Below, in pieces: positions 4,365 through 46,741 of a stretch of DNA of 64,000 bases. Within the stretch, counting starts at the first letter, position 1; each line of letters starts with the position of its first letter. The notes under the pieces were generated by a model. The model ran no database searches. It worked only from the letters and a program-made list of their open reading frames with translations, and had not been told where the DNA came from. A program made the translations under genes and the position numbers. The DNA is from an uncultured Clostridia bacterium (lineage in GTDB: Bacteria; Bacillota; Clostridia; Christensenellales; UBA1242), in contig CANREZ010000002.1 of NCBI GenBank assembly GCA_947629745.1, forward strand, positions 210 to 64,209, written 5' to 3'.

Positions 4365-4592
4365 TATTTTCTCCTAACGTAAATTTGTGACCCGGGACAT
4401 TCCCAGTATACATTATAAATAGTTTACTATTTATTCGACGATAGTGTCAAACAATCGACAACTTATTTTTATTTTGCGCAAAATACGACTAATTATTGAG
4501 TGAAAAATTATTTGACAGAAGATGAGTGGAATAGGGGAAATGTAGGGAAATAATTATGATAAAAGTGAAGAGAGGTTGAATTATATAGAGGG

Positions 4593-5056
4593 TAGTGAGT
4601 TGGCATCAAGGTTGGATGAAAAGCCCGCTCAATCCCCTCAGTCTGCACTTTGTGCATCCAGCTCCCCCTACTACGGGGCGCCTTTAATAGGTTTAAGATA
4701 TATAAAATTAGGTCAAAAGACCTAATTAATAATAAGTTTATTAAAAAGAAAAATTATATTTTTAATTTTTAATTATCTATTTACTTTTCACCTCATAAGG
4801 CTCCCTTTTAGTAAGGGGAGCTGGCGGAGACTTCCGCCTGAGGGGATTGATCGGGCTTACGGACCATCGTTGATTCGCGCTCATTCACCCACTAAAAAAT
4901 AAAGTAAAGATAAGGTCGAAATATTAGAATAAGATATATTTACATAAAAGATTAAAATAAATTATTAACACAAGAAAATTTATTATAATCAAGGAGGGTG
5001 GCGTGCCACATTGAGACGACTTACGGACCATCGTTGATTCGCGCTCATAACCTACT
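4593..5056. repeat. Composite hairpin-repeat locus A: modules U(+) 4593-4682, AT-rich spacer with 9-bp hairpin 4706-4727, U(-) 4798-4895, V(-) 4993-5056
   Basis: CTCAATCCCCTCAG (4629-4642) is inverted at 4839-4851 (CTGAGGGGATTGA). There is a perfect 29-nt direct repeat cttacggaccatcgttgattcgcgctcat at 4856-4884 and 5020-5048. Locus A is about 90% identical to locus B in the same module order. Confidence 0.85.
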
Positions 5057-5095
5057 AAATAATTAGTATAAAAAGAGGAATATGGATTATTTATG

Positions 5096-5124
5096 TTGAA
5101 AAATTTGGGGATATAGTGTATAAT
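5096..5124 (+). promoter_or_regulatory. Sigma-A-type promoter for the S-box/metK unit
   Basis: TTGAAA (5096-5101), 17-nt spacer, TATAAT (5119-5124), a few nt upstream of the riboswitch P1 helix. Confidence 0.55.
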
Positions 5125-5128
5125 GTGT

Positions 5129-5260
5129 CTATACCATGAAGAGTGGCGGAGGGACAGACCCTATGAAACCACAGCAACCTACAATTTTGCAAGGTGCTAA
5201 AGTCTGACCGATGGGTAATAAAAAGTATAGGATCCCACCGGTAGCGATGGGATTTTTCTT
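5129..5260 (+). promoter_or_regulatory. SAM-I (S-box) riboswitch with intrinsic terminator
   Basis: P1 CTATAC (5129-5134) pairs with GTATAG (5225-5230). Conserved cores are AGAGTGGCGGAGGGAC, CCCTATGAAACC, GCAACC and GGTGCTAA. Terminator ATCCCA (5232-5237)/TGGGAT (5248-5253) is followed by TTTTTCTTT. It lies directly upstream of metK. Confidence 0.9.
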
Positions 5261-5287
5261 TGCTCTTTCATGGGAAAAGGAGTATTT

Positions 5288-6373
5288 ATGAAAAAGATTA
5301 TAACAAGTGAGAGTGTGAATTGTGGTCATCCAGACAAGACTTGTGATATCATCGCAGATAGCTTCCTCGATGCAGCACTAGAGTCTGACCCAAATGCACA
5401 GATGGCGGTGGAATGCGCCATAAAGTCGGACAAATTATTCATCTACGGCGAGGCTACCACTACGGCAAAAATTGACTATGAGAAGATCGCGCGCGAGGTA
5501 TTAAAGGATATTGGCTACAAGCAGCCATTCAAAATTTATAAGACCATCACTGAGCAAAGTCCAGATATAAGCCAAGCGGTGAAGCGTGAGGAACTATGCG
5601 CCAACGATCAGGGAATGTGCTACGGCTATGCTACAGATGAGACGCCCGAGTACATGCCCATGCCAATAATAATGGCACATCGCCTCATGCGAAACTATGA
5701 GACATTTAGGAGAAACAATGAGGGATTCTTCGCCGATGCGAAGTCCCAAGTATCTATCGAATATGCGGACGACAAGCCAGTCCGTGTAGATACCGTGTTA
5801 ATATCTGTCTCGCACAGAGAGGACTTAGAGCCTGCATTTATACGCGAGACTATTTACAAAAACGTCGTATTGCCTACGCTAAGGAACTATCCAAATGTGT
5901 CGGTGGAGAACACACATTTTATCATCAACCCTAGTGGTAAATTCACCATCTGGGGCAGCGAGAGTGACAGCGGATGCGTGGGAAGAAAAATTGTGGTGGA
6001 TACCTACGGTGGAGTTGGTCGTGTAGGTGGAGGATGTTTTAGTTCTAAAAACGCTACCAAGGTCGACCGATCAGGTGCATACTACGCGCGATATGTAGCA
6101 AAAAATATTGTCGCACATGGTCTTGCACATAGGTGTGAGATACAGATAAGTTTTGGCATTGGGCTTGCCGAGCCGCTTAGCCTATACATCGATACTTTTG
6201 GCACAGAAACTGTACCACTTGAGGAAATCTATTCATATGTGCGTGAGCACTTTGACTTCCACTTATCCAATATTATCCGCGAGCTGGACCTATTGCGTCC
6301 TATATACAAAGCTACTGCCTGCTATGGGCATTTTGGCCGACCAGAATTCCCATGGGAGAGGATTATAGAATAG
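5288..6373 (+). CDS. metK: S-adenosylmethionine synthetase
   Basis: ORF track 5270..6373. I prefer the ATG at 5288 (MKKIITSESV...), preceded by GGAAAAGGAG. Motifs: GHPDKTCD, ANDQGMCYGYA, GGGCFSSKNATKVDRSGAY. Confidence 0.93.
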   Translation: MKKIITSESVNCGHPDKTCDIIADSFLDAALESDPNAQMAVECAIKSDKLFIYGEATTTAKIDYEKIAREVLKDIGYKQPFKIYKTITEQSPDISQAVKREELCANDQGMCYGYATDETPEYMPMPIIMAHRLMRNYETFRRNNEGFFADAKSQVSIEYADDKPVRVDTVLISVSHREDLEPAFIRETIYKNVVLPTLRNYPNVSVENTHFIINPSGKFTIWGSESDSGCVGRKIVVDTYGGVGRVGGGCFSSKNATKVDRSGAYYARYVAKNIVAHGLAHRCEIQISFGIGLAEPLSLYIDTFGTETVPLEEIYSYVREHFDFHLSNIIRELDLLRPIYKATACYGHFGRPEFPWERIIE

Positions 6374-6398
6374 TTGATAAGAAAGGTTATTCAATTAC

Positions 6399-6963
6399 TT
6401 AGTAGGAACAATGTTGGAACTAAGGTGGGTGCAAAGGCTGCTCAATGTGGCACTCCACTTTCCTGGGGGATATTTTAATTTAACAAATTATTATATTGTT
6501 ACTATTTTTGTTTAGCCAACCCATATTGATAGAGAGTGCAGGAGTTGGTAGCAAGAGAGATAAAAGCTGGCTCAATCCCCTCAGTCACCTAATCGGTGCC
6601 AGCTCCCCCTACTACGGGGCGCCTAAATGAGGTCAAGAGATAATATTTATATTTGCGCGGCGCCTTTAATAGGTTTAAGATATATAAAATTAGGTCAAAA
6701 GACCTAATTAATAATAAGTTTATTAAAAAAGAAAAATTATATTTTTAATTTTTAATTATCTATTCACTTTTCACCATATAAGGCTCCCTTTTAGTAAGGG
6801 GAGCTGGCGGAGACTTCCGTCTGAGGGGATTGAGCAGGCTTACGGACCTTCTTAGGTTCGCGCACACTTGCCCACTGAAAAATAAAGTAAAGATAAGGAA
6901 GAAATATTAACATAAAAGATAAAAATAAATTATTAACACAAGATATAATCCTATAATCAAGGA
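6399..6963. repeat. Composite hairpin-repeat locus B: V(+) 6399-6471, U(+) 6541-6645, spacer, U(-) 6781-6880, tail to 6963
   Basis: Same order and near-identical spacer as locus A. It carries an extra 41-nt insertion (6624-6664) ending in a duplicated GGCGCC, and ends with the same AATCAAGGA as locus A. Confidence 0.85.
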
Positions 6964-6977
6964 AAGCGGCTCGCCAC

Positions 6978-7006
6978 AAAAAAAGACCACGGGCGTGGTC
7001 TTTTTT
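6978..7006. terminator. Bidirectional intrinsic terminator between convergent metK-side and glycosyltransferase-side transcription
   Basis: AAAAAAA-GACCAC-GGGC-GTGGTC-TTTTTT. Confidence 0.8.
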
Positions 7007-7048
7007 GCTATCGATAATTTAGTAAAATTTCGTGTACAGGAAATTTAG

Positions 7049-7236
7049 TTATAAGGACTATATATTTGATTTATAAGATGCATATATCTATTAGATGTCT
7101 ATTAGTCCTATATTGATTAATTCCACAATATATTAGGTCCTATAGAGTCTTACTAATTCTACAAGATATTAGATTCTTAATGGTTATTAATCCCACAAGA
7201 TATTAGTCCTATAAGGCAATATATTAGTCCTAAAAG
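7049..7236. repeat. Array of about 16-bp sites, core ATATTAG(G)TCCTATA: five direct copies plus one inverted copy
   Basis: Cores at about 7100-7115, 7129-7145, 7166-7181 (degenerate), 7200-7215 and 7221-7236. Inverted copy TTATAAGGACTATAT at 7049-7064. Three copies are preceded by TTAATyCyACAAkAT. Confidence 0.7.
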
Positions 7237-10512: not shown

Positions 10513-13500
10513 ATGAAAAAATGGAAAGGTATAATACTCACATCTGCGCTACTTGGCACAATTGGTTTTGCTGGGTGCGGATGTCAGAATGAGATCCCGG
10601 ATATAGATCTGCCGACTAATATCGTTGTGCAGAATGAGACCGAAGTGCAGGAAGTGCTAGGTCTAGGGCAGACCCGAGATATTACATATAGGATAATTCC
10701 TGACGGTCTAAAGCCTGAGTACGACGATGTGCGTATTACTTTTGATAAGACTGGAATTGTGGAGTTTGCCGATGGTGGCGGTAGCGACCGTATTGAGGGA
10801 TTTGATACTTTTACCATCAAGGCAATAGGAGAGGGCACAGTCACCATCACTGTCACCACTCGTCATAGGGCATTGTCTGCTAGTATCACCATAGAAGTGG
10901 TGGATATCGAGACCCTTGCTACTCCAAGTATTTCTTGTGATGGCACGAAGATATCTTGGGATGCAGTGAATAACGCCCAGGGCTATATAGTGCGTGTCGC
11001 AAAGGGTAACGAAACTCCTAGGACATACCAAGTAGACGCTAATACCAATACATACACATTGCCAGAAGACTTCCGTCAAGATGGCGTGCAGTACACCGCA
11101 TCTGTCCGTGCAATTGGCGATGGCAAGAAATATCTTGCTAGCCCATATAGTGCAGGTTATACATTCTCGTTCCTGCCACTGGTGAGTGACTTTACCATTG
11201 ACGGCACGAAGTTTGTATTCGAGCCAGTAGATGGCGCTACTTCGTACTCGGTCACTATCAATAATAACGAGCATGATGTTACTTTTAATACTACTGACAC
11301 CACTTTTGATTTAGTGGAAAAAGCTGGCGTAACGGCCGATAGATACACTGTTAGGATTTTGCCACAAAATGAGTCTGCAAATGTGTTCCAGAGTCACCAG
11401 GCGTCTGAGGGTGAGTTCACAGTAAATAAACTAGCTACTGTAAGTAATATCACCACATCAGTCGATGCTACGACTATATCTTTTGATGCAGTCACTGGCG
11501 CTGAGAAATACACATATTTATTTACGCAACAGGGTAGAGATACGACTATCACCAAGACTTCGACTAACCCATCGCTTGAGATTTCATCATTAGAGGAAAT
11601 TACAGCAGGGCAGTGGACAGTGAAGATTTACCCATCTAGCCACACTATGGTGGATGGAGATAGCACTGAGTATTCATTCGAGAAATTAGGCGAGGCTGGG
11701 GAATGCACTATATCGAATAACCAGCTGACTATCGCTGAGGGAAATATTACGGCTAGCAAGTACCGCCTGACATTCGTGGATACTATTACGGGTGAGAAAA
11801 CCTATTACACATCCACCAATAGGACGGTGGACATATTGGCAGCTCTGGATAGCAAATCCGGGAAATACGAATTGTACATCGCACTGGCAGGTACAGATGG
11901 CGAGCAACAGGTCACAGGTAACGATAGCGAGACCGCGCTAGAATTTACTATCCTAGCACTGCCAACTGTGACAAAATACACGAATAATCACAATCTATCT
12001 AGTGATACATATACACACGGCCATGAGACTATCACCTGGAGTGCAGTCGAGGGTGCGGTAAGTTATAATGTGTATATTAAAAATGGTTCGGGATTTGAGT
12101 GCATAGGAAGTGTTACTGCTAATGATTCAGAAGAATATTCATTTGAGTTAAATGAAAAATTTAACACACTCTTAGCTGGTGAATATGGCATATATGTGAG
12201 TGCAGTTGGTGACGGCACAGATTATTTATCCAGTAAGACGCTAAAGAATGAAGAAGTCGCCGATTACAAGATAACGAAGCTAAATAACGTTCAAGCCGAG
12301 ACCGCAACATTCGATGAGACTACTAATAAACTTACATGGGCTGCAGTCGAGGGTGCAGCAGGCTATGCGCTGAGTTTTGACGGCGGGAAAACATATTATC
12401 AAACTAGTGAAAATGCTTATTATGTTACACAAAATCTAAGTGAGACTACGAGTGTCACAATTATTGCACTTGGTTATGATAGCATTGGAAGTGATACATC
12501 CAATTGGTCGGCAAATAGCAATAGTGGATCGCTTTATACTATCAAGAAACTGCAGAAGATAAGTACGGTAAATACTTCAGGTGGCAAACTGACCTTCACC
12601 GACCCTAACACAAGTGATAGCATTGCAGGACTTAGATATGTTATCTCAAATGATTCTAGGATATTAGCAGAGTTCCGCGATGTTGAGGCAGCTGAGGGTG
12701 TCATAACTCTAGACCTTGATGCGCTAAATCTCGATGGCGGCACTTATACAATAAAACTATCCGTGCGCGGCACAGGTTGTCTTGATAGCGATGAGACCGA
12801 AGTAACAATCAAGGTATTAAATACGATTGGCAATTCGACCGTTACATATTCAAATGATGATACATACAAGTTAAATTGGGATAGTATAGAGGGTGTCACG
12901 TCGTATAGTTTCGAGGGATATTATCTCGACAACGGCGGGAATAAACACATTATTCCAACAGATGTTGTTAATGGAATATTAGGAAATGATCACAAATTAG
13001 ACGCAACCAAACTTGCTAGCGGCACATACAAATATCGTCTGCGCGCAATGGGTGGCACTATCACTGAGACTGAATATATATCCAGCAAATGGTCCGAGGA
13101 ATTCACATTCGTGGTGTTCCCAAAAGTCAGCGTAAAGACTGAGGACAACAAACTCGTGTGGAACGCTTCCACTGTTGGCAACCTGTCAGCAGATCAATAC
13201 GATATCTATATGGCAAATGGCACAGGAGATGAATACAAGAAAGTCGGCACAGTAAGTGAGGGCTTAGAGTTTGATTTAGCAAAGGTTACTGAGGCAAGTG
13301 AAGCTGGCACATACAAATTCTATGTCGTGCCATATGGCACACTGACCGACACTGTAAAGGGTGCAAACTCCGATGTGTTGACTCTAACAAAGAGTGATAA
13401 ATTATCCGAAGTAACTGTAAAGAGTGGTGTCCTAACCTGGACAGATGATGTAGATGGTGAAAACGTCACTTACCTAATCTTTGAGGGAGATACATTACTC

Positions 13501-16500
13501 GGCACAACAGCTGAGAAATCGATTCTAGATATATTTGATGCAGGGAAGGAGTATACTGTAAAAGTTGTGCGCCGCACAGTAGGCCAGATGGATTCTGTAG
13601 CAAGTGACGAGATATCATTTACTAGACTTGTGGCTCCAGCTAACTTCGTTGTGGCAAATAACGTCATCACATTTGATGCAGTAGAGAATGCTACTGGATA
13701 CCGCGTGACTGATGTAGGCAGTAGTGGCACTTGGCAGATAAATGTTGGCGATGATGGCAAAGTAACATTTGATTTACGTCAATATGGCATCACAGGTGCA
13801 CACCACTTGCAGTTTGTGGCACTTGGCAGCGAGACGGCAAATGGCGCAAACTATCTAAATAGTGCACCAAGTGTAGCTGTGGGTTGCTCAGTACTTGCTA
13901 ACCACATTTCGCTCGCTATTACCGATGGCAAACTCACTTGGACCGCCGAGTCAGGCGATATCTCAGGTTATGAATTGCATATCTACACCAAGACGGGTTC
14001 AGGTGATGAATATAGCGAAACTACAACCAAGATTTTTGATAGCAATACTCGTACATACGACTTCCAGGGACTTGCTGGTGAATACTATGTGAAGATCCTT
14101 GCAAAAGGTAACAACTTAGAGATATTCGACAGTGTGCTGACCAACGATTACTTCCATGTAACCAAACTCGCAACTCCACAGATTACACTCAATCTTGGCT
14201 CAATCAAGTTAGTCAAGGATAACAACATAAGTGGATGCAAGTTCACTCTATATCGTGGAGGAGAAGTATTAACCACACTAGCAGATAGCGAGAGTTCATA
14301 TTTTGACTCAACCGCTATGACCGGCAATGTGTATGCATATAGCCTAGTGTTAACCAAAGACGGGTGTGTGTCTAGTGACGTGTCAAAGGCTCTTCGTGTG
14401 CAATATCTAGATATTGTGACCGGACTAAGACTTGTAGAGGGTGACAATATGAATGTCACACTACAATGGGCACCAGTAGAACACGCAAATGGATACAATG
14501 TATATAGAGTGTTAGATAATGGAATACATCAGTTAGTCACAACTGTTGAGTCAGGTGTTACATCAATTGATGTGGATTTGCTAGCTAATTCACAAGGCCA
14601 CATTGTAATCCAAGCAATTGGTGGCAATGTAGGATATAGCGATATAACGGACGGAGATGAAGCACAAGGTTATTGTAACGGTCAATACAGTGCCGAGATA
14701 GAATTATTCATCCTAGCACAAGTTACTGATCTAAAATTGACCAACGGTGTCCTCACCTGGACGGATGCGGAGAACGCAACTGAGTATCTAGTGCGCGTTT
14801 ACAAAGTAGAGGGAGATGGCCCAAGGCAACTCGTGGCAAGCGCATTTGTGGCAGGCACAGAATATAGGTTTGAGACTGAGGTCGACGGCGAGTACTGCGC
14901 AGAGGTCTACACCATCGGTGATTACAGCCAAGGCACAGGATATATCTCAAATAAAAATCCTAAGATACTAGATCACGTATTCAAGCACAACGTGTTAGAA
15001 ATGGATACAGTCAAGATGAAGAATGGATTGTTTACATTCGATGTATCTGTTAACGAATTAAAAGATGTGTTAAGTGTTTTACCAGAAACTAATAAACTAT
15101 CTAATAAAGAATTAGGACAAGTTGCAGAAACAATTTTTGCAAGGTTTAGCGAAGGCACTGAGCTTACTGGTGAGATAGTTATAAGCGGTGTGCATATCAA
15201 TGTGAAGGATGCATCGGATGCTTTGTATCATCTATTCTATCTAGATGTCGCGTATGACAAGATAGCTAATTTCGGAGATATCACCACATCATATGAGTAT
15301 AGTTATGGCAATCTAGCAAGGTCGGTGAGCTCGACTGATGCTGGTATCACAGTGACCTTTGATTTCCTACTAGGTGAGGGATATTACAACATGATGTTCT
15401 GCACATCGGGTAATAGCGGAGACGAGGAGTCTACATACAAGCTTTACCTTGCAGGCAACATGACCGATAACATCAAGGTGTACAAAGCCTTGACTCCAAC
15501 TCCAGTGCAACATGGTGAATTACAACATTACATCATCGACGGCGATGTGCATTTCAACCGCGTGTATTACACCGAGGATAATGAGCAAAAGGAAAGTGGT
15601 TATGTCGTGGAAGTCCGCTACACATTAAGTGGCAGAAGATATACTAGAGAACACGAAGTAACGCAGGAAGAATTAAAAGAAGCAGCAGGTATTGTCAAGC
15701 TAGATACATTGGTTAATGAATTTAACCTCCCAACTGCAACCACACTTCAAATTAGTGTGAGGGTAAAGGGTTCTACTGGAGAGATAAACACAGATGAGAT
15801 AATTATCAGCCGTGGCAGTCTGGATGTAACTAGCGAGACCAAGATATTGCCAACGCCAAGTGTATCTGTGCGTGGTGGACACGCTGAATGGATAGCAAGC
15901 GGTGAGGCAAGTTATCAGCTAGTTAAAATTTATAACGAACGCAATGAAATATTAGACGAAAGACAATTAGTCCCAGTGATTAGTGAAGTGTTAGGTGTAA
16001 CGCCTGAGAGCGCTCCAACCTATATCACCAACGGTGGATTCCGCGTGAGCAAGGATATGACACAGTTTATGACCACAGCACTTGGAGCTGGAACTAACTA
16101 CAACATAAGCGTGCAGGAGTGCGGAAATAATGTTGACTTGATAGACTCCAAAGTATCCGCAAATATTACATTCAATATACTTGAGGAAACTGTAAAAGAC
16201 TTTAGGTACGAGGGTGGAAATATTATATTCTCTGGTAAGAATAGCGCTCAAGTGACAGTCTATAGGGTAGATACTGAGGGCAACCTCGTAGCATTCAATC
16301 CAATTGTGCTAAATAGGAGTGACGCAACAACTAGTGGACAAGGTGACGGATTCTACACATTCACATTCACTATGCCATCGACATTCGAGACATATGATGC
16401 CGAGGGCAACAAGATTGACTACAAGATAGGTGTGAGAGATTATCCAGCAGGCATTAGTGGATCAAACTTAGTAAGTACCGAACACATGTTAGATAAGACC

Positions 16501-19245
16501 TTCAATAGAGCAGATACTATAGATATTAGTTCTGTGACAATTGATGGGCAGAAGTTAAGATGGACCGGCGTGGACTATGCAACTGCATACGAAGTGAGTG
16601 TGAGCGGTGTCAATGTGGGCGAGTTAACACACGTTGATGATGATAACCCATTAGACACTGAGATTGACTTGACGGAGTTCCCAGGTGGTATGTATCAAGT
16701 GGGTATTCGCGCTACATCATCTGCACAGCCAGTGGATTCAGAAAAACAACTCCTGCTTGGTCAATACGCTTATGTGACTATCACGAAGTACGACGCACCA
16801 GAGATTAGACTAAAAGACGGTCAATTGTATTGGGGCGTGGAAGACACCATGATTGCTAAGAACACTAGCCATGTGGAAGTGAAAGACGAGAGTGGCACTG
16901 TGATATATTCTAAAGACTTAGAGAGTGCTACATTCGACTTTGCAACTGAGATGACAAATGACGATACAGTGTTTGACCCAGGCACATACACAGTGGCAGT
17001 AAGCATACTAGCAACTCCTGGCACAAAGGATATGACTAGCCCAATTGAGGAGATTGAGGTAAATTACTTAGGTGCACCAACTGTGGATACTGTAAGGGAG
17101 ACACTAGATAATACTCCAGCAGTGAAGGTGACAGTAGAGCAGCACGCTAGCGGATACAGATTCACTTGTGTGACGCATACAGCGGATGACACTGAGTCTA
17201 CAATGTTCCTATACGATGTGTATTTGACAAGGACAGAAGAGCTAAGAGTCGACCGTGTGGCTGTGACTGAATACTACTACGATATAGAAAACGAGCAGTT
17301 TGTCTTAAGAGCTGATCAATATGATCTACAAGACTTTAATGAAAAAGTATACATTGGTGAAGATCAATGCCTATACTTCTACACCAAGAATGTAACCTTG
17401 CCAGTAGGTGGCAGTGACTTTGAGATAACAGTCCGTGCAATTGGTGGCGAGATGGAGGAAGTCACATACGTTTCGGGCAAACCAGCAGAGACTATCTACA
17501 TCACCACTCCAACCCAGCCTAAGAGTGTGAACGTAAATGCACAAACAGGTATGGTCACATGGACTAATGACAAACAAGGATTCTACTCACATATTAGATA
17601 CACTATCAAGCAGACATTAACGAATGATTATACAATAGAGACCCTTGCTAAGAGATTTGCTAAGTTTGAGAACAAGACTATCTACAAACTAGCAAGTGAC
17701 AACCACAGAGTTGTATATAGCGCAGACGCAGACAATGCAAGTGAGTTTACTGCAAACACCGAAGTCTATATTGAGATAGAGGAAGCACTAGATCAGAATG
17801 TACAACAATTTAGATTGAAGACTATTGGCTCATACAGCAATATCTACATCTTCAATATGTCTAGCACGGGTGAGATCTCGGAGAATTCAGATATCTATTC
17901 AGCCGAGTTTAGACCATTTGAGTCTGGTGATGGTACGACCGAGTATCCATATATCATCAAGACTAGTGATCATATGAATAGGCTAAATGTATTTGGTACT
18001 GAGAATTATCAATACAAAGTCGAGGCAGAGAGCTTAACTATCGCAATGTTTACTACAATTAGCACGTTCAATGGAACTATAGACTTTGGCACATCGAAGA
18101 TTACTTATTCGGCAAGTAATGCATTTATAGAAAACCTTGCAGGCAAAGTATATTCAAGCGATAAATCTGCTGAAATTACAATTAGCAGTAATATCAATTA
18201 CTTCATCCATAGCATTGCCCATGGTGGGAATTTGAGCGATATTAAGTTCGTCCTATCATCAGTAAATAAGACTATATCTAGTGGCACAACGGGTGTGTCG
18301 TTAATCACTACAAACAATGGCACAATCAGTGGACTGGATATAAGCGTTGGTGAGATGAATTACACTATCCAAAATAGCGGTTATGTCGCACTACTTGTTG
18401 GCACGAATGATGGCCAGGTGAGCGATATCAATATCCATGCAATTGAGAATACTGGCAAGATAAGGGTCACTACACAGGCTGCAAGTTACATCTCCGCAGT
18501 GGCATACAGGAATGGTTCTAACGGAACTATGAGGAATATAAAAGTAACGTTAGATATAGAAGTAGATGAGACGAATAATTCTATCAGCTACGTCTCCACA
18601 CTTGCTACCTACAACCATGGAAGTATTACATTAGCTATCGTGAAGAGTAACTTAACCAGTAAACACAGCAGCTTGTCTGGTGGTGTGAACTGGAACTTAG
18701 GTTCACTCGACCAAGTGTCCTATCAAGGTAAGTTGACTATTACCGAATCAAGTAACAATAGCATCTACGCAGTGGGATTAGTTGGCATTATGACAGATAG
18801 CCTAAATATTGGTGGATCTAGTTATCAGTCAAATAGTGTGACGGTATCCAATTGTTACACCATTATTGAATCAGTGAATATTACAAGCGGCCGTGCAACG
18901 GTGGCAGGACTCATCGGCTCAACCAATGTGAAGAGCACATTCAAGGTCGAGAACTCCTACACAATAATTGCATCAATTAGTACAAATGGAAGTCTCACAG
19001 TAGGATTAGTGACAGGTAATCCAAATACAAATAACAATTACACCAATGTCTATTACTTAGCAGTGAATGGATACAATGCTACGTCAGGCACAACGGGTAT
19101 AACCGGTGCAAGCAGCACAGATGCATTCACTACACAGAATGGAAATGCTATAACTCTTGGAGATAAATTCAAGAGTACTAAGACGCAGATTACATTTGAT
19201 GAAAAGACTTACTATATCTATGAGTTTGCTGAGGTGACTGACTAG
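10513..19245 (+). CDS. Giant surface lipoprotein (2,910 aa): Big_2 domain, at least 18 FN3-like repeats, C-terminal GLUG-type beta-helix region
   Basis: Lipobox GFAGC. N-terminal TFTIKAIGEGTVTITVTT resembles Big_2. An ~85-90-aa repeat carries the signature W/F-x-A-V-x-G-A-x-x-Y (ISWDAVNNAQGYIV, ITWSAVEGAVSYNV, LTWAAVEGAAGYAL, LQWAPVEHANGYNV, LTWTDAENATEYLV, LRWTGVDYATAYEV and others). The C-terminal part starts GDGTTEYPYII and contains VALLVGTNDG, AVGLVGIM, VAGLIGST and TVGLVTGN. Confidence 0.9.
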   Translation: MKKWKGIILTSALLGTIGFAGCGCQNEIPDIDLPTNIVVQNETEVQEVLGLGQTRDITYRIIPDGLKPEYDDVRITFDKTGIVEFADGGGSDRIEGFDTFTIKAIGEGTVTITVTTRHRALSASITIEVVDIETLATPSISCDGTKISWDAVNNAQGYIVRVAKGNETPRTYQVDANTNTYTLPEDFRQDGVQYTASVRAIGDGKKYLASPYSAGYTFSFLPLVSDFTIDGTKFVFEPVDGATSYSVTINNNEHDVTFNTTDTTFDLVEKAGVTADRYTVRILPQNESANVFQSHQASEGEFTVNKLATVSNITTSVDATTISFDAVTGAEKYTYLFTQQGRDTTITKTSTNPSLEISSLEEITAGQWTVKIYPSSHTMVDGDSTEYSFEKLGEAGECTISNNQLTIAEGNITASKYRLTFVDTITGEKTYYTSTNRTVDILAALDSKSGKYELYIALAGTDGEQQVTGNDSETALEFTILALPTVTKYTNNHNLSSDTYTHGHETITWSAVEGAVSYNVYIKNGSGFECIGSVTANDSEEYSFELNEKFNTLLAGEYGIYVSAVGDGTDYLSSKTLKNEEVADYKITKLNNVQAETATFDETTNKLTWAAVEGAAGYALSFDGGKTYYQTSENAYYVTQNLSETTSVTIIALGYDSIGSDTSNWSANSNSGSLYTIKKLQKISTVNTSGGKLTFTDPNTSDSIAGLRYVISNDSRILAEFRDVEAAEGVITLDLDALNLDGGTYTIKLSVRGTGCLDSDETEVTIKVLNTIGNSTVTYSNDDTYKLNWDSIEGVTSYSFEGYYLDNGGNKHIIPTDVVNGILGNDHKLDATKLASGTYKYRLRAMGGTITETEYISSKWSEEFTFVVFPKVSVKTEDNKLVWNASTVGNLSADQYDIYMANGTGDEYKKVGTVSEGLEFDLAKVTEASEAGTYKFYVVPYGTLTDTVKGANSDVLTLTKSDKLSEVTVKSGVLTWTDDVDGENVTYLIFEGDTLLGTTAEKSILDIFDAGKEYTVKVVRRTVGQMDSVASDEISFTRLVAPANFVVANNVITFDAVENATGYRVTDVGSSGTWQINVGDDGKVTFDLRQYGITGAHHLQFVALGSETANGANYLNSAPSVAVGCSVLANHISLAITDGKLTWTAESGDISGYELHIYTKTGSGDEYSETTTKIFDSNTRTYDFQGLAGEYYVKILAKGNNLEIFDSVLTNDYFHVTKLATPQITLNLGSIKLVKDNNISGCKFTLYRGGEVLTTLADSESSYFDSTAMTGNVYAYSLVLTKDGCVSSDVSKALRVQYLDIVTGLRLVEGDNMNVTLQWAPVEHANGYNVYRVLDNGIHQLVTTVESGVTSIDVDLLANSQGHIVIQAIGGNVGYSDITDGDEAQGYCNGQYSAEIELFILAQVTDLKLTNGVLTWTDAENATEYLVRVYKVEGDGPRQLVASAFVAGTEYRFETEVDGEYCAEVYTIGDYSQGTGYISNKNPKILDHVFKHNVLEMDTVKMKNGLFTFDVSVNELKDVLSVLPETNKLSNKELGQVAETIFARFSEGTELTGEIVISGVHINVKDASDALYHLFYLDVAYDKIANFGDITTSYEYSYGNLARSVSSTDAGITVTFDFLLGEGYYNMMFCTSGNSGDEESTYKLYLAGNMTDNIKVYKALTPTPVQHGELQHYIIDGDVHFNRVYYTEDNEQKESGYVVEVRYTLSGRRYTREHEVTQEELKEAAGIVKLDTLVNEFNLPTATTLQISVRVKGSTGEINTDEIIISRGSLDVTSETKILPTPSVSVRGGHAEWIASGEASYQLVKIYNERNEILDERQLVPVISEVLGVTPESAPTYITNGGFRVSKDMTQFMTTALGAGTNYNISVQECGNNVDLIDSKVSANITFNILEETVKDFRYEGGNIIFSGKNSAQVTVYRVDTEGNLVAFNPIVLNRSDATTSGQGDGFYTFTFTMPSTFETYDAEGNKIDYKIGVRDYPAGISGSNLVSTEHMLDKTFNRADTIDISSVTIDGQKLRWTGVDYATAYEVSVSGVNVGELTHVDDDNPLDTEIDLTEFPGGMYQVGIRATSSAQPVDSEKQLLLGQYAYVTITKYDAPEIRLKDGQLYWGVEDTMIAKNTSHVEVKDESGTVIYSKDLESATFDFATEMTNDDTVFDPGTYTVAVSILATPGTKDMTSPIEEIEVNYLGAPTVDTVRETLDNTPAVKVTVEQHASGYRFTCVTHTADDTESTMFLYDVYLTRTEELRVDRVAVTEYYYDIENEQFVLRADQYDLQDFNEKVYIGEDQCLYFYTKNVTLPVGGSDFEITVRAIGGEMEEVTYVSGKPAETIYITTPTQPKSVNVNAQTGMVTWTNDKQGFYSHIRYTIKQTLTNDYTIETLAKRFAKFENKTIYKLASDNHRVVYSADADNASEFTANTEVYIEIEEALDQNVQQFRLKTIGSYSNIYIFNMSSTGEISENSDIYSAEFRPFESGDGTTEYPYIIKTSDHMNRLNVFGTENYQYKVEAESLTIAMFTTISTFNGTIDFGTSKITYSASNAFIENLAGKVYSSDKSAEITISSNINYFIHSIAHGGNLSDIKFVLSSVNKTISSGTTGVSLITTNNGTISGLDISVGEMNYTIQNSGYVALLVGTNDGQVSDINIHAIENTGKIRVTTQAASYISAVAYRNGSNGTMRNIKVTLDIEVDETNNSISYVSTLATYNHGSITLAIVKSNLTSKHSSLSGGVNWNLGSLDQVSYQGKLTITESSNNSIYAVGLVGIMTDSLNIGGSSYQSNSVTVSNCYTIIESVNITSGRATVAGLIGSTNVKSTFKVENSYTIIASISTNGSLTVGLVTGNPNTNNNYTNVYYLAVNGYNATSGTTGITGASSTDAFTTQNGNAITLGDKFKSTKTQITFDEKTYYIYEFAEVTD

Positions 19246-21273: not shown

Positions 21274-21308
21274 AAAAAGACTAAGCGGGCGGCTTAGTCT
21301 AATTTTTT
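21274..21308. terminator. Terminator hairpin, copy 1 of a direct repeat
   Basis: AAAAAGACTAAGC-GGGC-GGCTTAGTCTAATTTTTT. Identical to 22334-22367 at 32 of 34 positions, with both differences in the loop. Confidence 0.75.
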
Positions 21309-21320
21309 AAAATTTTATAA

Positions 21321-22232
21321 TTAATCTCTTCTTGTATCTTCCTTAATTGCGCGATAAAGTATTTTGCCGCCTGCATTACATATAGTGGCATTTGGGAATT
21401 CTTTCATTAAAAATAAAATAAATTCTTTGTTTTGTTCTTGTTTGCTAGACAATATGAATGCGGAAATATACTGGGAAGGTACAGCTATTGGAAGGTATGC
21501 GTATTCATCCCCCTCACGCATTGGACTAGATTTACATCTTAAGCTTCCTAAGGCTTGTTTTTGCGCTTCAGTATTTATTCCATTTGGATATTTATCTAAT
21601 CTATATGCATATTGTCTATTAGTAATAGGATCTATATAACCTGGACCCATTAGAATATGAGGTCTAACATTTGATATGTCAAATGCTAGAAGTTTTTGAA
21701 TGCCAGGGCTTGTTGAATCGATAACAATTCCTAATTCATTTATAGAAGTTATGTTTGTGTGATTATAAAAGGAATGTCTAGTCATTATAGAATCGTATTC
21801 TTCAGACACTGATCTTGTCTCAGCACATCTATGAAAACTGACCATATATGGCACTTCATTATCTAAACCTTGTAAATCGCCAACATTAAATGAAGCAATA
21901 CTTAATAACCCTTTTTCCTTAATGGAGAGCAATTTCTCATAATCAATTTCAACATTTCCATAGGTTATAGGCGACAGATGTATCAAAGTACCTGCAGGTA
22001 ATATCATTTCATTTTGTTTATTAACACTGTAATTAAATGGCGTAGTTTTATAATTATTAGCCTTAAAATACGCATCAGTTATACAATTTGTTATATTGTT
22101 TGCAAGTGTTTGATCGGTTAGAAACCTTAGTCCATCTGTTCTAAAACTCTTTATCCAATTATTGAGTGAAGGTTCACCAATCTCTTTTGGGATACCTCCC
22201 ATTGCTTTAATGTTAATTCCGCGAATTTTCAT
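21321..22232 (-). CDS. Hypothetical protein, compositionally atypical (AT-rich) cassette gene
   Basis: ORF track 21321..22250. ATG at 22232 follows AGGAGCAATTAT. No motif recognised. Hand-counted 60-nt samples give 30-33% GC, against 47% in the adjacent HIT gene. Confidence 0.6.
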   Translation of the reverse strand: MKIRGINIKAMGGIPKEIGEPSLNNWIKSFRTDGLRFLTDQTLANNITNCITDAYFKANNYKTTPFNYSVNKQNEMILPAGTLIHLSPITYGNVEIDYEKLLSIKEKGLLSIASFNVGDLQGLDNEVPYMVSFHRCAETRSVSEEYDSIMTRHSFYNHTNITSINELGIVIDSTSPGIQKLLAFDISNVRPHILMGPGYIDPITNRQYAYRLDKYPNGINTEAQKQALGSLRCKSSPMREGDEYAYLPIAVPSQYISAFILSSKQEQNKEFILFLMKEFPNATICNAGGKILYRAIKEDTRRD

Positions 22233-22333
22233 ATAATTGCTCCTATGCATATATTTTACTTCAAATTTTGCCAGTTGTCAATATCAAATATTTTCTTTAG
22301 CTTAAAATTTAATATATAAAGAAGAGAATAAGT

Positions 22334-22367
22334 AAAAAGACTAAGCGGTCTGCTTAGTCTAATTTTT
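22334..22367. terminator. Terminator hairpin, copy 2 of the direct repeat
   Basis: AAAAAGACTAAGC-GGTC-TGCTTAGTCTAATTTTT. Similarity extends about 35 nt further (tcttgtatyttcctt), matching the 3' end of the cassette gene. Confidence 0.75.
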
Positions 22368-45958: not shown

Positions 45959-46042
45959 GTTGGGAGGATGGAGAATTTGGATAGCGCATTATAAGTCTCC
46001 CAAAGATTTAAGTAACCTAAATGAGGATAAAATATTGTAGTT

Positions 46043-46262
46043 AGATGGTAGAGAAGTTTGAACATAAGCGGGTAAAAAGTCGGCTCAATCCTCTCAGTGT
46101 GGCACGCCACTTGCCTGGGGTAATAATAAAGTATGTTTGTTTAATTATTAAAAGAGCAATGAGTTGGTAGAAAGAAAGATATAAGCCTGCTCAATCCCCT
46201 CAGTCTGCACTTCGTGCATCCAGCTCCCCCTACTACGGGGCGCCTAAATAAGGTGTTAAGAA
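46043..46262 (+). repeat. Hairpin-repeat locus C: V(+) 46043-46120 and U(+) 46161-46262
   Basis: GCTCAATCCTCTCAGTGTGGCACGCCACTTGCCTGGGG is the V module. GAGTTGGTAGAAAG...GCTCAATCCCCTCAGTCTGCACTTCGTGCATCCAGCTCCCCCTACTACGGGGCGCCTAAATAAGGT is the U module. This is the same V-then-U tandem as 6399-6645. Confidence 0.85.
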
Positions 46263-46271
46263 ATTATAAAA

Positions 46272-46306
46272 AGAGTGCTGCAATTGCTTGCAACACTCTA
46301 TTTTAT
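46272..46306 (+). terminator. Hairpin following repeat module U(+)C (weak terminator)
   Basis: AGAGTGCTGCAA-TTGC-TTGCAACACTCT (one mismatch), followed by ATTTTAT. Confidence 0.45.
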
Positions 46307-46504
46307 CCATCTTAGTTATTAATTATATTTTAGTTATTAGTTATATTTTAATTAATAATTAAATTTTAGCTATTAATTATATTTTAATTTTCTATTTTGT
46401 CTTAGTTATTTAATCTTAGTTTTATATTTTATTAGTAATTTATTTTGGTAATTAATTTTATATTAGTTATTAGGTTAATTTTGGTCAATTATATAATAAT
46501 TTTG
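46307..46504. repeat. Extremely AT-rich, roughly 18-nt periodic low-complexity tract
   Basis: Recurring TTAGTTATT and (A/T)ATTATATTTTA units (for example cttagttattaattatatttta, gttattagttatatttta, gctattaattatatttta). It abuts the acpP stop codon. Confidence 0.7.
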
Positions 46505-46741
46505 TTATTTACTTGATAATTTCTCAACAATTCGGGCTACGTCGCCAACGGTCTTTAACTTAGCTGCTTCGTCATCGCTAACCACTATGCCTTTTTTATC
46601 CTCAAGTATCATTAGTAATTCCACGACATCTAGACTATCTGCGCCTAGGTCATCGACAATCTTGCTATCTGCACTAATTTCGTCCACTTTAAGAGATAAT
46701 TGGTCGGCTAATATCTTCTTTACCTCGTCTAACGCTGTCAT
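46505..46741 (-). CDS. acpP: Acyl carrier protein
   Basis: 78 aa. LGADSLDVVELLMILE contains the phosphopantetheine-Ser motif DSLD. RBS AGGAGG. Confidence 0.92.
   Translation of the reverse strand: MTALDEVKKILADQLSLKVDEISADSKIVDDLGADSLDVVELLMILEDKKGIVVSDDEAAKLKTVGDVARIVEKLSSK

Follow-up and report, generated by a model that had tools for sequence, protein, structure and literature searches.

Hairpin repeats around metK in an uncultured Clostridia bacterium, best explained as decayed members of a modular family of palindromic DNA repeats linked to DUF559 genes

We analysed a 64,000-nt stretch of DNA (hereafter the window; contig CANREZ010000002.1, positions 210-64,209, assembly GCA_947629745.1) from an uncultured Clostridia bacterium of the UBA1242 lineage, whose genome has a G+C content of 41%. 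Two related hairpin repeats, here called U and V, lie on both sides of the metK gene of this window and at a third locus. They are best explained as decayed copies of a widespread, modular family of palindromic DNA repeats of gut Clostridia, comparable to repetitive extragenic palindromic (REP) sequences and to MITEs (miniature inverted-repeat transposable elements). Literature searches retrieved no published description of this family. In other genomes its modules form the inverted ends of a gene for a DUF559 protein, a Vsr-like nuclease as judged by its predicted fold, and we consider it rather probable that U and V are the decayed relatives of such ends.

A first, sequence-only reading of the window had described eight members of a hairpin-repeat family, with inverted U(+)/U(-) pairs among them. 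All eight are present, none more than a few bases from where it had placed them, and so are the pairs. A profile combining U and V retrieved exactly these members from the 64 kb (five U and three V, E from 8e-30 to 9e-14); no ninth member was found in the window, the next matches of this profile all having E≥3. Two fragments accompany the eight, a piece of a U tail (6656-6664) and a truncated V (6961-6978). The core of the repeat, TCAATCCCCTCAG-N(8-26)-CAGCTCCCC, occurs five times in the window against 0.00 occurrences expected from 100 shuffles. When a profile was built only from the A-type modules of other genomes, described below, it retrieved 5/5 of the U copies with E of 1e-8 to 1e-10. 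Aligned with one another, the window copies resolve into four parts: a leader of about 55 nt common to U and V (TAG.GG..GAG..G.A...AAG.C..CTCAAT), a head (CCCCTCAG) that two of the V copies, V1 and V2, do not have, a slot holding differing self-complementary sequences and, in U only, CAGCTCCCC followed by a second hairpin.

The sequence-only reading had proposed a search for further copies, and these were found in other genomes. We scanned one genome per bacterial and archaeal species for the exact core and examined the genomes with matches as pieces of about 8 kb. Among the matches listed, the core was present in at least 109 stretches from 28 genomes or metagenome-assembled genomes (MAGs), as counted by contig prefix. 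Nearly all of the hosts belong to the Oscillospiraceae or are gut Clostridia of other kinds (Ruminococcus sp., Acutalibacter, Neglectibacter caecimuris, Faecousia, Vescimonas and Pelethomonas). There are often many copies per genome, 42 heads in 147 kb in one MAG, and many of them sit at contig ends. No match to the core pattern was found among the viral contigs of IMG/VR. One exact core match fell on a 3-kb contig of a MAG labelled 'Phenylobacterium', an alphaproteobacterium (locus L017, CAMFHW010000537.1), which is either a case of mis-binning or a rare occurrence outside the Clostridia.

Across these genomes the A-type module, to which U corresponds, reads TCAATCCCCTCAG-[TCA..stem..loop..stem..TGA]-CAGCTCCCC-TT[variable tip]AA-GGGGAGCC; that is, a head CAATCCC(C)TCAG, a variable hairpin with nearly perfect pairing, CAGCTCCC(C), and GCTCCC..GGGAGC as the tail hairpin. 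The feet of the variable hairpin, CAATCCCCTCAG and CAGCTCCCC, are conserved and contain no tetranucleotide of the GTAG type. As a rule a sister module, the B type (CAATCCCTCCGTC-hairpin-GCCACCTCCC..), is found about 35 nt upstream of the A module in inverted, head-to-head orientation; in the full unit described below it can be written GCCTCCC..GGGAGGTGGC-hairpin-GACGGAGGGATTG. Together A and B make a composite of about 180 nt that has a hairpin at either outer end; many MAGs contain B(-)/A(+) doublets spaced 70-90 nt apart. Mosaics of several module types, in variable order, were seen in other genomes.

The central slot had been read as holding four different self-complementary sequences. These variants are real, and the covariation behind them is strong throughout the family. 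We collected 135 copies with exact flanks from the window and the 109 fetched stretches; they carry 72 distinct inserts, whose arms form 344 Watson-Crick, 3 G:T and 10 A:C pairs (G:T = 3/388). In a stricter set that also required the tail hairpin (59 distinct inserts), positions 3-5 were 93% paired, compared with 43 +/- 4% (maximum 55%) in 1000 shuffles of the arms, and each of these positions showed three to four pair types. Since this covariation exceeds that of the shuffled arms, we conclude that the variable hairpin is maintained. The variable hairpins are odd-centred, near-perfect palindromes with frequent TTC/GAA triloops, and copies occur in both orientations. Together with the small number of wobble pairs, these features argue for DNA rather than RNA and point to a repeat that would work as a DNA-level palindrome and not as a small RNA (sRNA). 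Whole copies from the window, folded as DNA, gave z-scores of -2.3 to +1.6, no better than shuffled sequences, and thermodynamic support for a fold of the whole copy was rejected on these values. The earlier statement that the repeat matches no known RNA family was borne out by Rfam 15: nothing matched U or V in the whole window at gathering thresholds, in 4400-7100 at E<=10 or in eight related loci at E<=1. The only gathering-threshold matches in the window were an S-adenosylmethionine (SAM)-I riboswitch and one tRNA.

We asked which gene accompanies the modules. All-against-all clustering of 2,802 open reading frames (ORFs) from the 109 stretches returned a sole recurrent gene that is not a housekeeping gene. 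It encodes a protein of about 120 amino acids, occurs in three MAGs and is bracketed by modules at each of the loci concerned (L034, L040 and L106). The other recurrent clusters were rejected as partners: they were housekeeping genes or consisted of spurious ORFs running across the repeats. The protein is a member of DUF559 (PF04480), with 95.8-115.1 bits against a cut-off of 20.6 (E 1e-27 to 1e-33), and its homologues on long contigs (L111-L118) all show the order inverted B module, gene, A module. A further 80 DUF559 loci were retrieved from metagenomes by means of peptide patterns drawn from its N-terminal and middle portions, so that the module-encoded end could not bias the retrieval; by eye, modules are present on most of them. 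The inverted-repeat score between the two flanks had a median of 28 and reached at least 20 in 42 of 63 distinct DUF559 genes, compared with medians of 10-11 in two controls. Of 71 loci, 25 had a match to a strict module pattern at most 200 nt upstream of the gene; at the stop codon, 27 of 70 loci had one, and 124 kb of farther flank gave a single match. DUF559 genes are tightly linked to the modules.

The full unit consists of a DUF559 gene between imperfect terminal inverted repeats of about 65 nt, the A module and the inverted B module, and both ends contribute to the gene. At L111 and L115 the A head and hairpin double as the final codons (GTT AAA CAA TCC CTC AGT CAG CTA CGC TGA), the ORF end VKQSLSQLR* is encoded by AAACAATCCCTCAGTCAGCTACGCTGA, and the TGA of the right variable hairpin is often the DUF559 stop codon. 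On the left, GACGGAGGGATTGTC is followed directly by ATG in many loci, which places the GGAGGG of the left head as a ribosome-binding site. Left and right ends co-vary by lineage (GGAGGGAGAGA with TCTCTCCCTC, TCTGACGA with TCGTCAGA), and the module variants that flank a gene recur elsewhere only within the MAG in question or one closely related to it (11 copies in JAGBIM and one in JAGARU; four in JAZRXJ). The shared ends, their co-variation and the MAG-specific variants indicate that the DUF559 gene and its modules are one evolving unit. Composites of two modules without the gene are dispersed within genomes and look like internal-deletion derivatives of the gene-bearing unit. At some loci (L194-L198 and L111-L114) DUF559 genes lie within alternating A(+)/B(-) arrays on both sides, a layout that suggests repeated insertion beside existing modules.

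By its fold the partner would be a Vsr-like nuclease of the PD-(D/E)XK type. Across 24 DUF559 sequences the motifs D..E.DG..H and R are invariant. The nearest structures to a predicted model of the protein (predicted local distance difference test, pLDDT, 77) were 3hrl, itself a DUF559 protein, the homing endonuclease I-Bth0305I, and Vsr. In the Foldseek comparison with I-Bth0305I (3r3p), the model gave a template-modelling (TM) score of 0.79, a root-mean-square deviation of 2.9 A and a probability of 1.00; the match of the protein to PDB entry 3hrl had E 2e-13. DUF559 has been grouped with Vsr among the PD-(D/E)XK nucleases (PMC3424549). In a survey of predicted inversion targets (PMC9881135), the description 'DUF559 domain-containing protein' is enriched 14-fold, as would suit genes that have inverted repeats on both sides.

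Signs of movement came chiefly from Ruminococcus RGIG4744, where a 190-nt composite carries extra outer inverted ends (..TGTCGAAAAA / TTTTTCGACA..). Four of the seven insertions with both flanks sit between direct repeats, of 35, 29, 33 (with three mismatches) and 24 nt, and each of these repeats consists of a terminator-like stem-loop that has been duplicated from one foot to the other. A fifth insertion lies in a hairpin loop, with a repeat of about 12 nt; the other two of the seven had no flanking repeat. Five more right ends at contig edges have a terminator-like hairpin within 1-5 nt. A gene-bearing DUF559 unit, at locus L152, is flanked by a 30-nt direct duplication (1371-1400 and 1937-1966) that interrupts the upstream gene at its 3' end. 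Long direct target duplications, often comprising a whole terminator hairpin, hence surround composites of one MAG and one gene-bearing unit. The L152 unit also carries a promoter-like site of its own, TTGACG-17-TATAAT.

A mechanism can be proposed in which the module hairpins act in DNA, as extruded hairpins or cruciforms. The DUF559 nuclease would recognise these hairpins and nick DNA in trans, thereby mobilising the unit that carries the gene as well as the derivatives that lack it. If the opposite strands were cut in a staggered manner, one at each foot of a target hairpin or cruciform, the duplications of 24-35 nt could result. We infer both the DUF559-driven mobilisation and the cutting at hairpin feet from the layout of the sequences described above.

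The features of the window that bear on this family are the following (coordinates are those of the window).

4580-4694 (+): U1, A-type module; head TCAATCCCCTCAG, hairpin TGCAC/GTGCA, CAGCTCCCCC, weak tail hairpin CCCC/GGGG, tail extension ..AGGT
4706-4727: perfect 9-bp spacer hairpin AATTAGGTC-AAAA-GACCTAATT, in the AT-rich stretch that separates the U1 tail from the U2 tail
4788-4900 (-): U2, A-type module; hairpin GCGGA/TCCGC, tail hairpin GCTCCC/GGGAGC
4982-5063 (-): V1, shorter sister module; leader of about 55 nt, CTCAAT head, hairpin GTGGC/GCCAC, degenerate tail
5131-5217 (+): SAM-I riboswitch of metK (Rfam 56.5 bits against a gathering score of 44.4), inside the module-enclosed segment
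5288-6373 (+): metK (S-adenosylmethionine synthetase), between V1/U2(-) and V2/U3(+), the module heads towards the gene
6394-6476 (+): V2, sister module; hairpin GTGG/CCAC
6526-6645 (+; profile span 6526-6635): U3, A-type module; hairpin CACC/GGTG
6656-6664 (+): U-tail fragment CGCGGCGCC (9 nt, the 3' arm of the tail hairpin), at the left breakpoint of the duplicated block 6656-6978
6688-6709: second copy of the 9-bp spacer hairpin
6771-6883 (-): U4, A-type module; hairpin CGGA/TCCG
6961-6978 (-): truncated V-like remnant GGAAAGCGGCTCGCCACA, which stops at its own hairpin base and abuts a terminator hairpin at about 6985-7000
46038-46125 (+): V3, sister module; keeps CCTCTCAG, hairpin GTGGC/GCCAC
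46144-46262 (+; profile span 46144-46256): U5, A-type module; hairpin TGCAC/GTGCA

Read from left to right, the metK locus consists of U1(+), a spacer with the 9-bp hairpin, U2(-), V1(-), the SAM riboswitch, metK, V2(+), U3(+), a second spacer with hairpin, U4(-), the truncated V(-) and a terminator. Two inverted V-U pairs enclose the riboswitch and metK, with the heads of V1/U2 and V2/U3 pointing to the gene, and metK occupies the position that the DUF559 gene holds in the canonical unit. A block of about 330 nt, 4674-5010, is directly repeated at 6656-6978 with about 89% identity, and both breakpoints of the duplicated block fall within module hairpins, in the loop of the U tail hairpin and at the foot of the V hairpin. 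No target duplication was found around the window copies, apart from a perfect 46-nt direct repeat (4698-4743 = 6680-6725) that contains the 9-bp hairpin and flanks the segment from U2 to U3; because it lies within the larger 89% duplication, it is ambiguous as a target duplication. The spacer hairpin had been taken for a terminator of the minus strand, and both it and its copy at 6688-6709 indeed score as terminator-like on that strand. At the third locus V3 and U5 lie between two convergent genes and their terminators; a 12-bp terminator-like hairpin lies at 46272-46299, 10 nt 3' of U5. The window copies are old and degenerate, adjoin hairpins of the terminator type and have ordinary chromosomal genes as neighbours. 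The two fragments, the direct repeat, the spread in gut Clostridia, the modules at the ends of DUF559 genes elsewhere and the bracketing of metK in the same geometry were all absent from the sequence-only reading.

An upstream hairpin had also been said to change in a compensatory manner between copies. This claim is weak. The hairpin exists in two sequence types only, GAATCA/TGGTCC (U2 and V1) and GAACCT/AGGTCC (U4), each with an A:C mismatch; one change between them is two-sided and one is one-sided, and in the other five copies the hairpin is not formed. The leader common to U and V was considered as a remnant of DUF559 3' coding sequence (FFSGQVC resembling NFSGVC by eye), a candidate that was dropped as unproven when a protein profile run against six-frame translations and a DNA profile of the 3' end both failed. 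It may instead be an inter-head spacer. The degenerate tail of V1, GCCACCCTCC, resembles the B-type GCCACCTCCC.

Several other observations concern the surroundings of these copies. A promoter-like site close to consensus, TTGAAA-17-TATAAT (5096-5124), precedes the SAM-I riboswitch inside the module-enclosed segment. The only other contig found to encode exactly this MetK (L110; ENA ERZ27249610 NODE_48213, 1,278 nt) consists of the gene and its leader alone, which fits assembly breakage at the flanking repeats. A window-specific pattern had 0 matches among metagenome contigs, and no close relatives of the window lineage were obtained. Some 3.5 kb downstream of the metK locus lies a very large ORF (2,910 aa) at 10513-19245(+). 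About 50 nt upstream of U5 the V3 hairpin (46100-46114) reads TGGCAC-GCCAC-TTGC, with a weaker version in V2 (about 6447-6461); this matches the sigma-54 -24/-12 consensus exactly and, being also the hairpin itself, is probably a chance likeness. Positions 46291-46497, which separate the V3/U5 locus from a small gene for a PP-binding (acyl-carrier-like) protein at 46505-46741(-), hold about seven AT-rich tandem units of 18 nt (..TTAGTTATTAATTATATT..). Elsewhere in the window, a 34-nt bidirectional-terminator hairpin, AAAAAGACTAAGCGG(G/T)C(G/T)GCTTAGTCTAATTTTT, stands at 21274-21307 and again at 22334-22367, on either side of a segment of about 1 kb that holds a 309-aa ORF (21321-22250(-)) with no Pfam or NCBIfam match. 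The pattern of a hairpin duplicated around an insert is the same as in the Ruminococcus MAG, but here no U or V modules are involved.

How does the family compare with known systems? Like the REP sequences and REPINs of Proteobacteria, which are served by REP-associated tyrosine transposases (RAYTs), the modules are short, GC-rich, palindromic units that form inverted doublets between genes in tens to hundreds of copies; there is likewise a small gene, apparently in few copies per genome, flanked by inverted units, and the variants of the units are specific to lineages and agree with the flanks of that gene. Unlike in those systems, the flanked gene encodes a DUF559/Vsr-like PD-(D/E)XK nuclease and not a Y1 HUH transposase, the units are larger (two hairpins, about 65 nt) and without a GTAG head, the gene overlaps the unit, the hosts are Clostridia, and there are long target duplications, which are not known for REPINs. 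Bacterial MITEs (Correia, RUP, ERIC and BOX) share the non-coding length of about 150-200 nt, the terminal inverted repeats, the target duplications and the resemblance to internal-deletion derivatives of a gene-bearing unit, and BOX and BIME share the modular, mosaic build. The composites differ from MITEs in that no DDE transposase partner was found, the candidate partner being a nuclease, and in that each end is made of two hairpins. Their duplications of 24-35 nt correspond to a hairpin, as opposed to 2-10 nt in MITEs, and vary in length (12, 24, 29, 33 and 35 nt, and 30 nt at L152), unlike the fixed short duplications of MITEs and insertion sequences (IS). I-Bth0305I, a Vsr-like EDxHD homing endonuclease, has a similar fold (TM 0.79) and is also encoded by a small, selfish-looking gene; it is, however, housed in a group I intron, with relatives in inteins or fractured genes, whereas the DUF559 genes here are free-standing, situated between other genes and module-bracketed, and it has no inverted-repeat ends, gene-less derivatives or target duplication. 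Palindromic or hairpin DNA is also the target of IS1397/ISKpn1 and IS110-family elements, which insert into REP hairpins, and CRISPR spacer acquisition by Cas1-Cas2 duplicates a whole palindromic repeat of about 30 nt by cuts at its two borders. These systems use DDE, DEDD or Cas1 integrases, and no such gene is linked to the modules here. Integron attC sites are a poor match as well: the sites that flank metK are inverted and have no RYYYAAC/GTTRRRY core motifs, and no integrase was present among the scanned window ORFs.

A layout similar to that of the modules is found in E. coli K-12 (L199, NC_000913.3, 1351040-1351840), where the final codons of the DUF559 gene ycjD (ending SPSP*) fall inside a GC-rich, palindromic repeat that is dispersed in the genome. 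About 40 nt of 3' coding sequence are repeated after an insert of about 66 nt, with a second copy of the repeat 170 nt further on. Across 5,426 E. coli genomes, a 51-mer taken from the repeat occurs at a median of 16 places in each. The repeat, which we presume to be the one called 'BoxC', lies on one side of ycjD only, and is likened to the Clostridial modules by layout and not by sequence homology. A perfect 17-bp hairpin overlaps the ycjD start codon.

Four other explanations were weighed against a REP/MITE-like repeat tied to the DUF559 nuclease. The modules could be control or insulation parts of a mobile DUF559 gene, with terminators on both sides and a 5'-3' duplex masking the ribosome-binding site of a potentially toxic nuclease; the nuclease would then have no action in trans on the modules, and the gene-less copies would be deletion scars. 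The position of the ribosome-binding site and start codon in or beside the left head and of the stop codon in the right hairpin agrees with this, as does the T run that often follows the tail hairpin. Folded as RNA, moreover, the full unit forms a terminal 5'-3' duplex that hides the ribosome-binding site (-183 kcal/mol, z = -6.8), and the gene-bearing unit itself has a target duplication. However, near-identical gene-less composites reach high copy numbers where the fetched loci show one gene or none, so that many independent losses would be required, and the gene-less composites of RGIG4744 have intact target duplications of their own, which suggests that they inserted as short elements. We regard the control or insulation account as plausible but unlikely. 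Another proposal makes U and V a REP/REPIN-type repeat served by an unseen RAYT (an IS200/IS605-like Y1 enzyme) or another classical transposase, with DUF559 a bystander or landing site. Inverted palindromic doublets dispersed between genes do resemble REPINs, and a single-copy RAYT could lie outside the 8-kb pieces sampled per genome. The modules, however, have no GTAG head typical of REPs, no recurrent transposase emerged from the ORF clustering, and the DUF559 ORF overlaps the module at its ribosome-binding site and stop codon while the ends co-vary with the gene lineage, which is not how a bystander behaves. The RAYT/IS200 partner that the sequence-only reading had suggested was not found either, although this is a weak test made with approximate queries: tblastn with the IS200 and IS608 TnpA proteins did no better than E = 0.08, whether in the window or in the 109 stretches. 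Service by such a transposase seems to us quite improbable.

U, with or without V, might also be a structured sRNA or cis-acting RNA with its own promoter and nearby terminators, whose exposed C-rich strands (CCCCUC, CUCCCC) could pair with Shine-Dalgarno sequences. Sequence conservation across genera together with hairpin covariation, the terminator-like hairpins 10-25 nt after U1, U3 and U5 and the exact TGGCAC-N5-TTGC motif of V3 upstream of U5 would suit an RNA. Yet the copies stand side by side in both orientations, module order differs from genome to genome, there are hardly any G:T pairs, the folding z-scores lie close to zero and Rfam holds no match; in addition, assemblies break at the copies, which also have target duplications and bracket a nuclease gene. 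On these grounds the sRNA, one of the options raised by the sequence-only reading, was set aside as very improbable, and the evidence favours another of its options, a REP/MITE-like element. We hold just as little for the idea of non-mobile DNA sites serving the host (nucleoid, gyrase-type or repair-protein sites, or stabilisers of mRNA ends) and spread by ordinary recombination: the intergenic positions near gene ends and terminators and the conservation over long evolutionary distance would be expected of such sites, but not the target duplications, the wide variation of copy number among genomes or the contigs broken at the repeats.

The REP/MITE-like reading with a DUF559 partner has to contend with several points of its own. 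No DUF559 match was found in the 64-kb window, nor any transposase, integrase or DUF559 gene among its scanned ORFs of at least 150 aa, and the partner of the window copies is thus unseen. The arrangement in the window is non-canonical: V and U stand in direct order, V first, and the U copies face each other with their tails. V is only loosely assignable to the B type. Hairpin-length duplications were seen in one MAG subfamily only, one with the extra outer inverted repeats TGTCGAAAAA, and by eye the composites of a second MAG, CAKUJL, had no target duplication. Movement is read from sequence alone and not from empty compared with filled sites. We know of no strand-transfer activity in a lone PD-(D/E)XK nuclease, which leaves the insertion step unexplained. 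The near-absence of G:T pairs argues for DNA, yet it is compatible with RNA, and given the RNA duplex over the ribosome-binding site, part of the conservation could serve control of the gene. With these points set against the module ends of DUF559 genes and the dispersed gene-less composites, a REP/MITE-kind DNA repeat with a new kind of partner, the DUF559 nuclease, is still how we best read the family.

A wider proposal, which we put forward tentatively and regard as possible but doubtful, is that DUF559/Vsr-like nucleases are the dedicated enzymes of an unrecognised class of transposase-less mobile DNA. In it, a nuclease gene with inverted ends of two hairpins each, and likewise the derivatives that lack the gene, would insert at hairpin-forming DNA such as terminators, and staggered cuts at the hairpin's feet would duplicate it whole (24-35 nt). 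If this were true, the logic of hairpin feet would explain orphan repeats such as those of the E. coli BoxC type near ycjD, and also why ordinary genes such as metK sit between module ends. No mobilising enzyme is known for many bacterial repeat families, among them BoxC, Correia and ERIC, and a partner that is only a nuclease, together with target duplications of hairpin length, would point to a different insertion chemistry. DUF559 is a large family found throughout bacteria, E. coli YcjD included, and its link to the repeats suggests a testable function. For the abundant gut Clostridia that carry them, the modules break metagenome assemblies, and repeats placed at terminators and promoters may alter the expression of neighbours such as metK.

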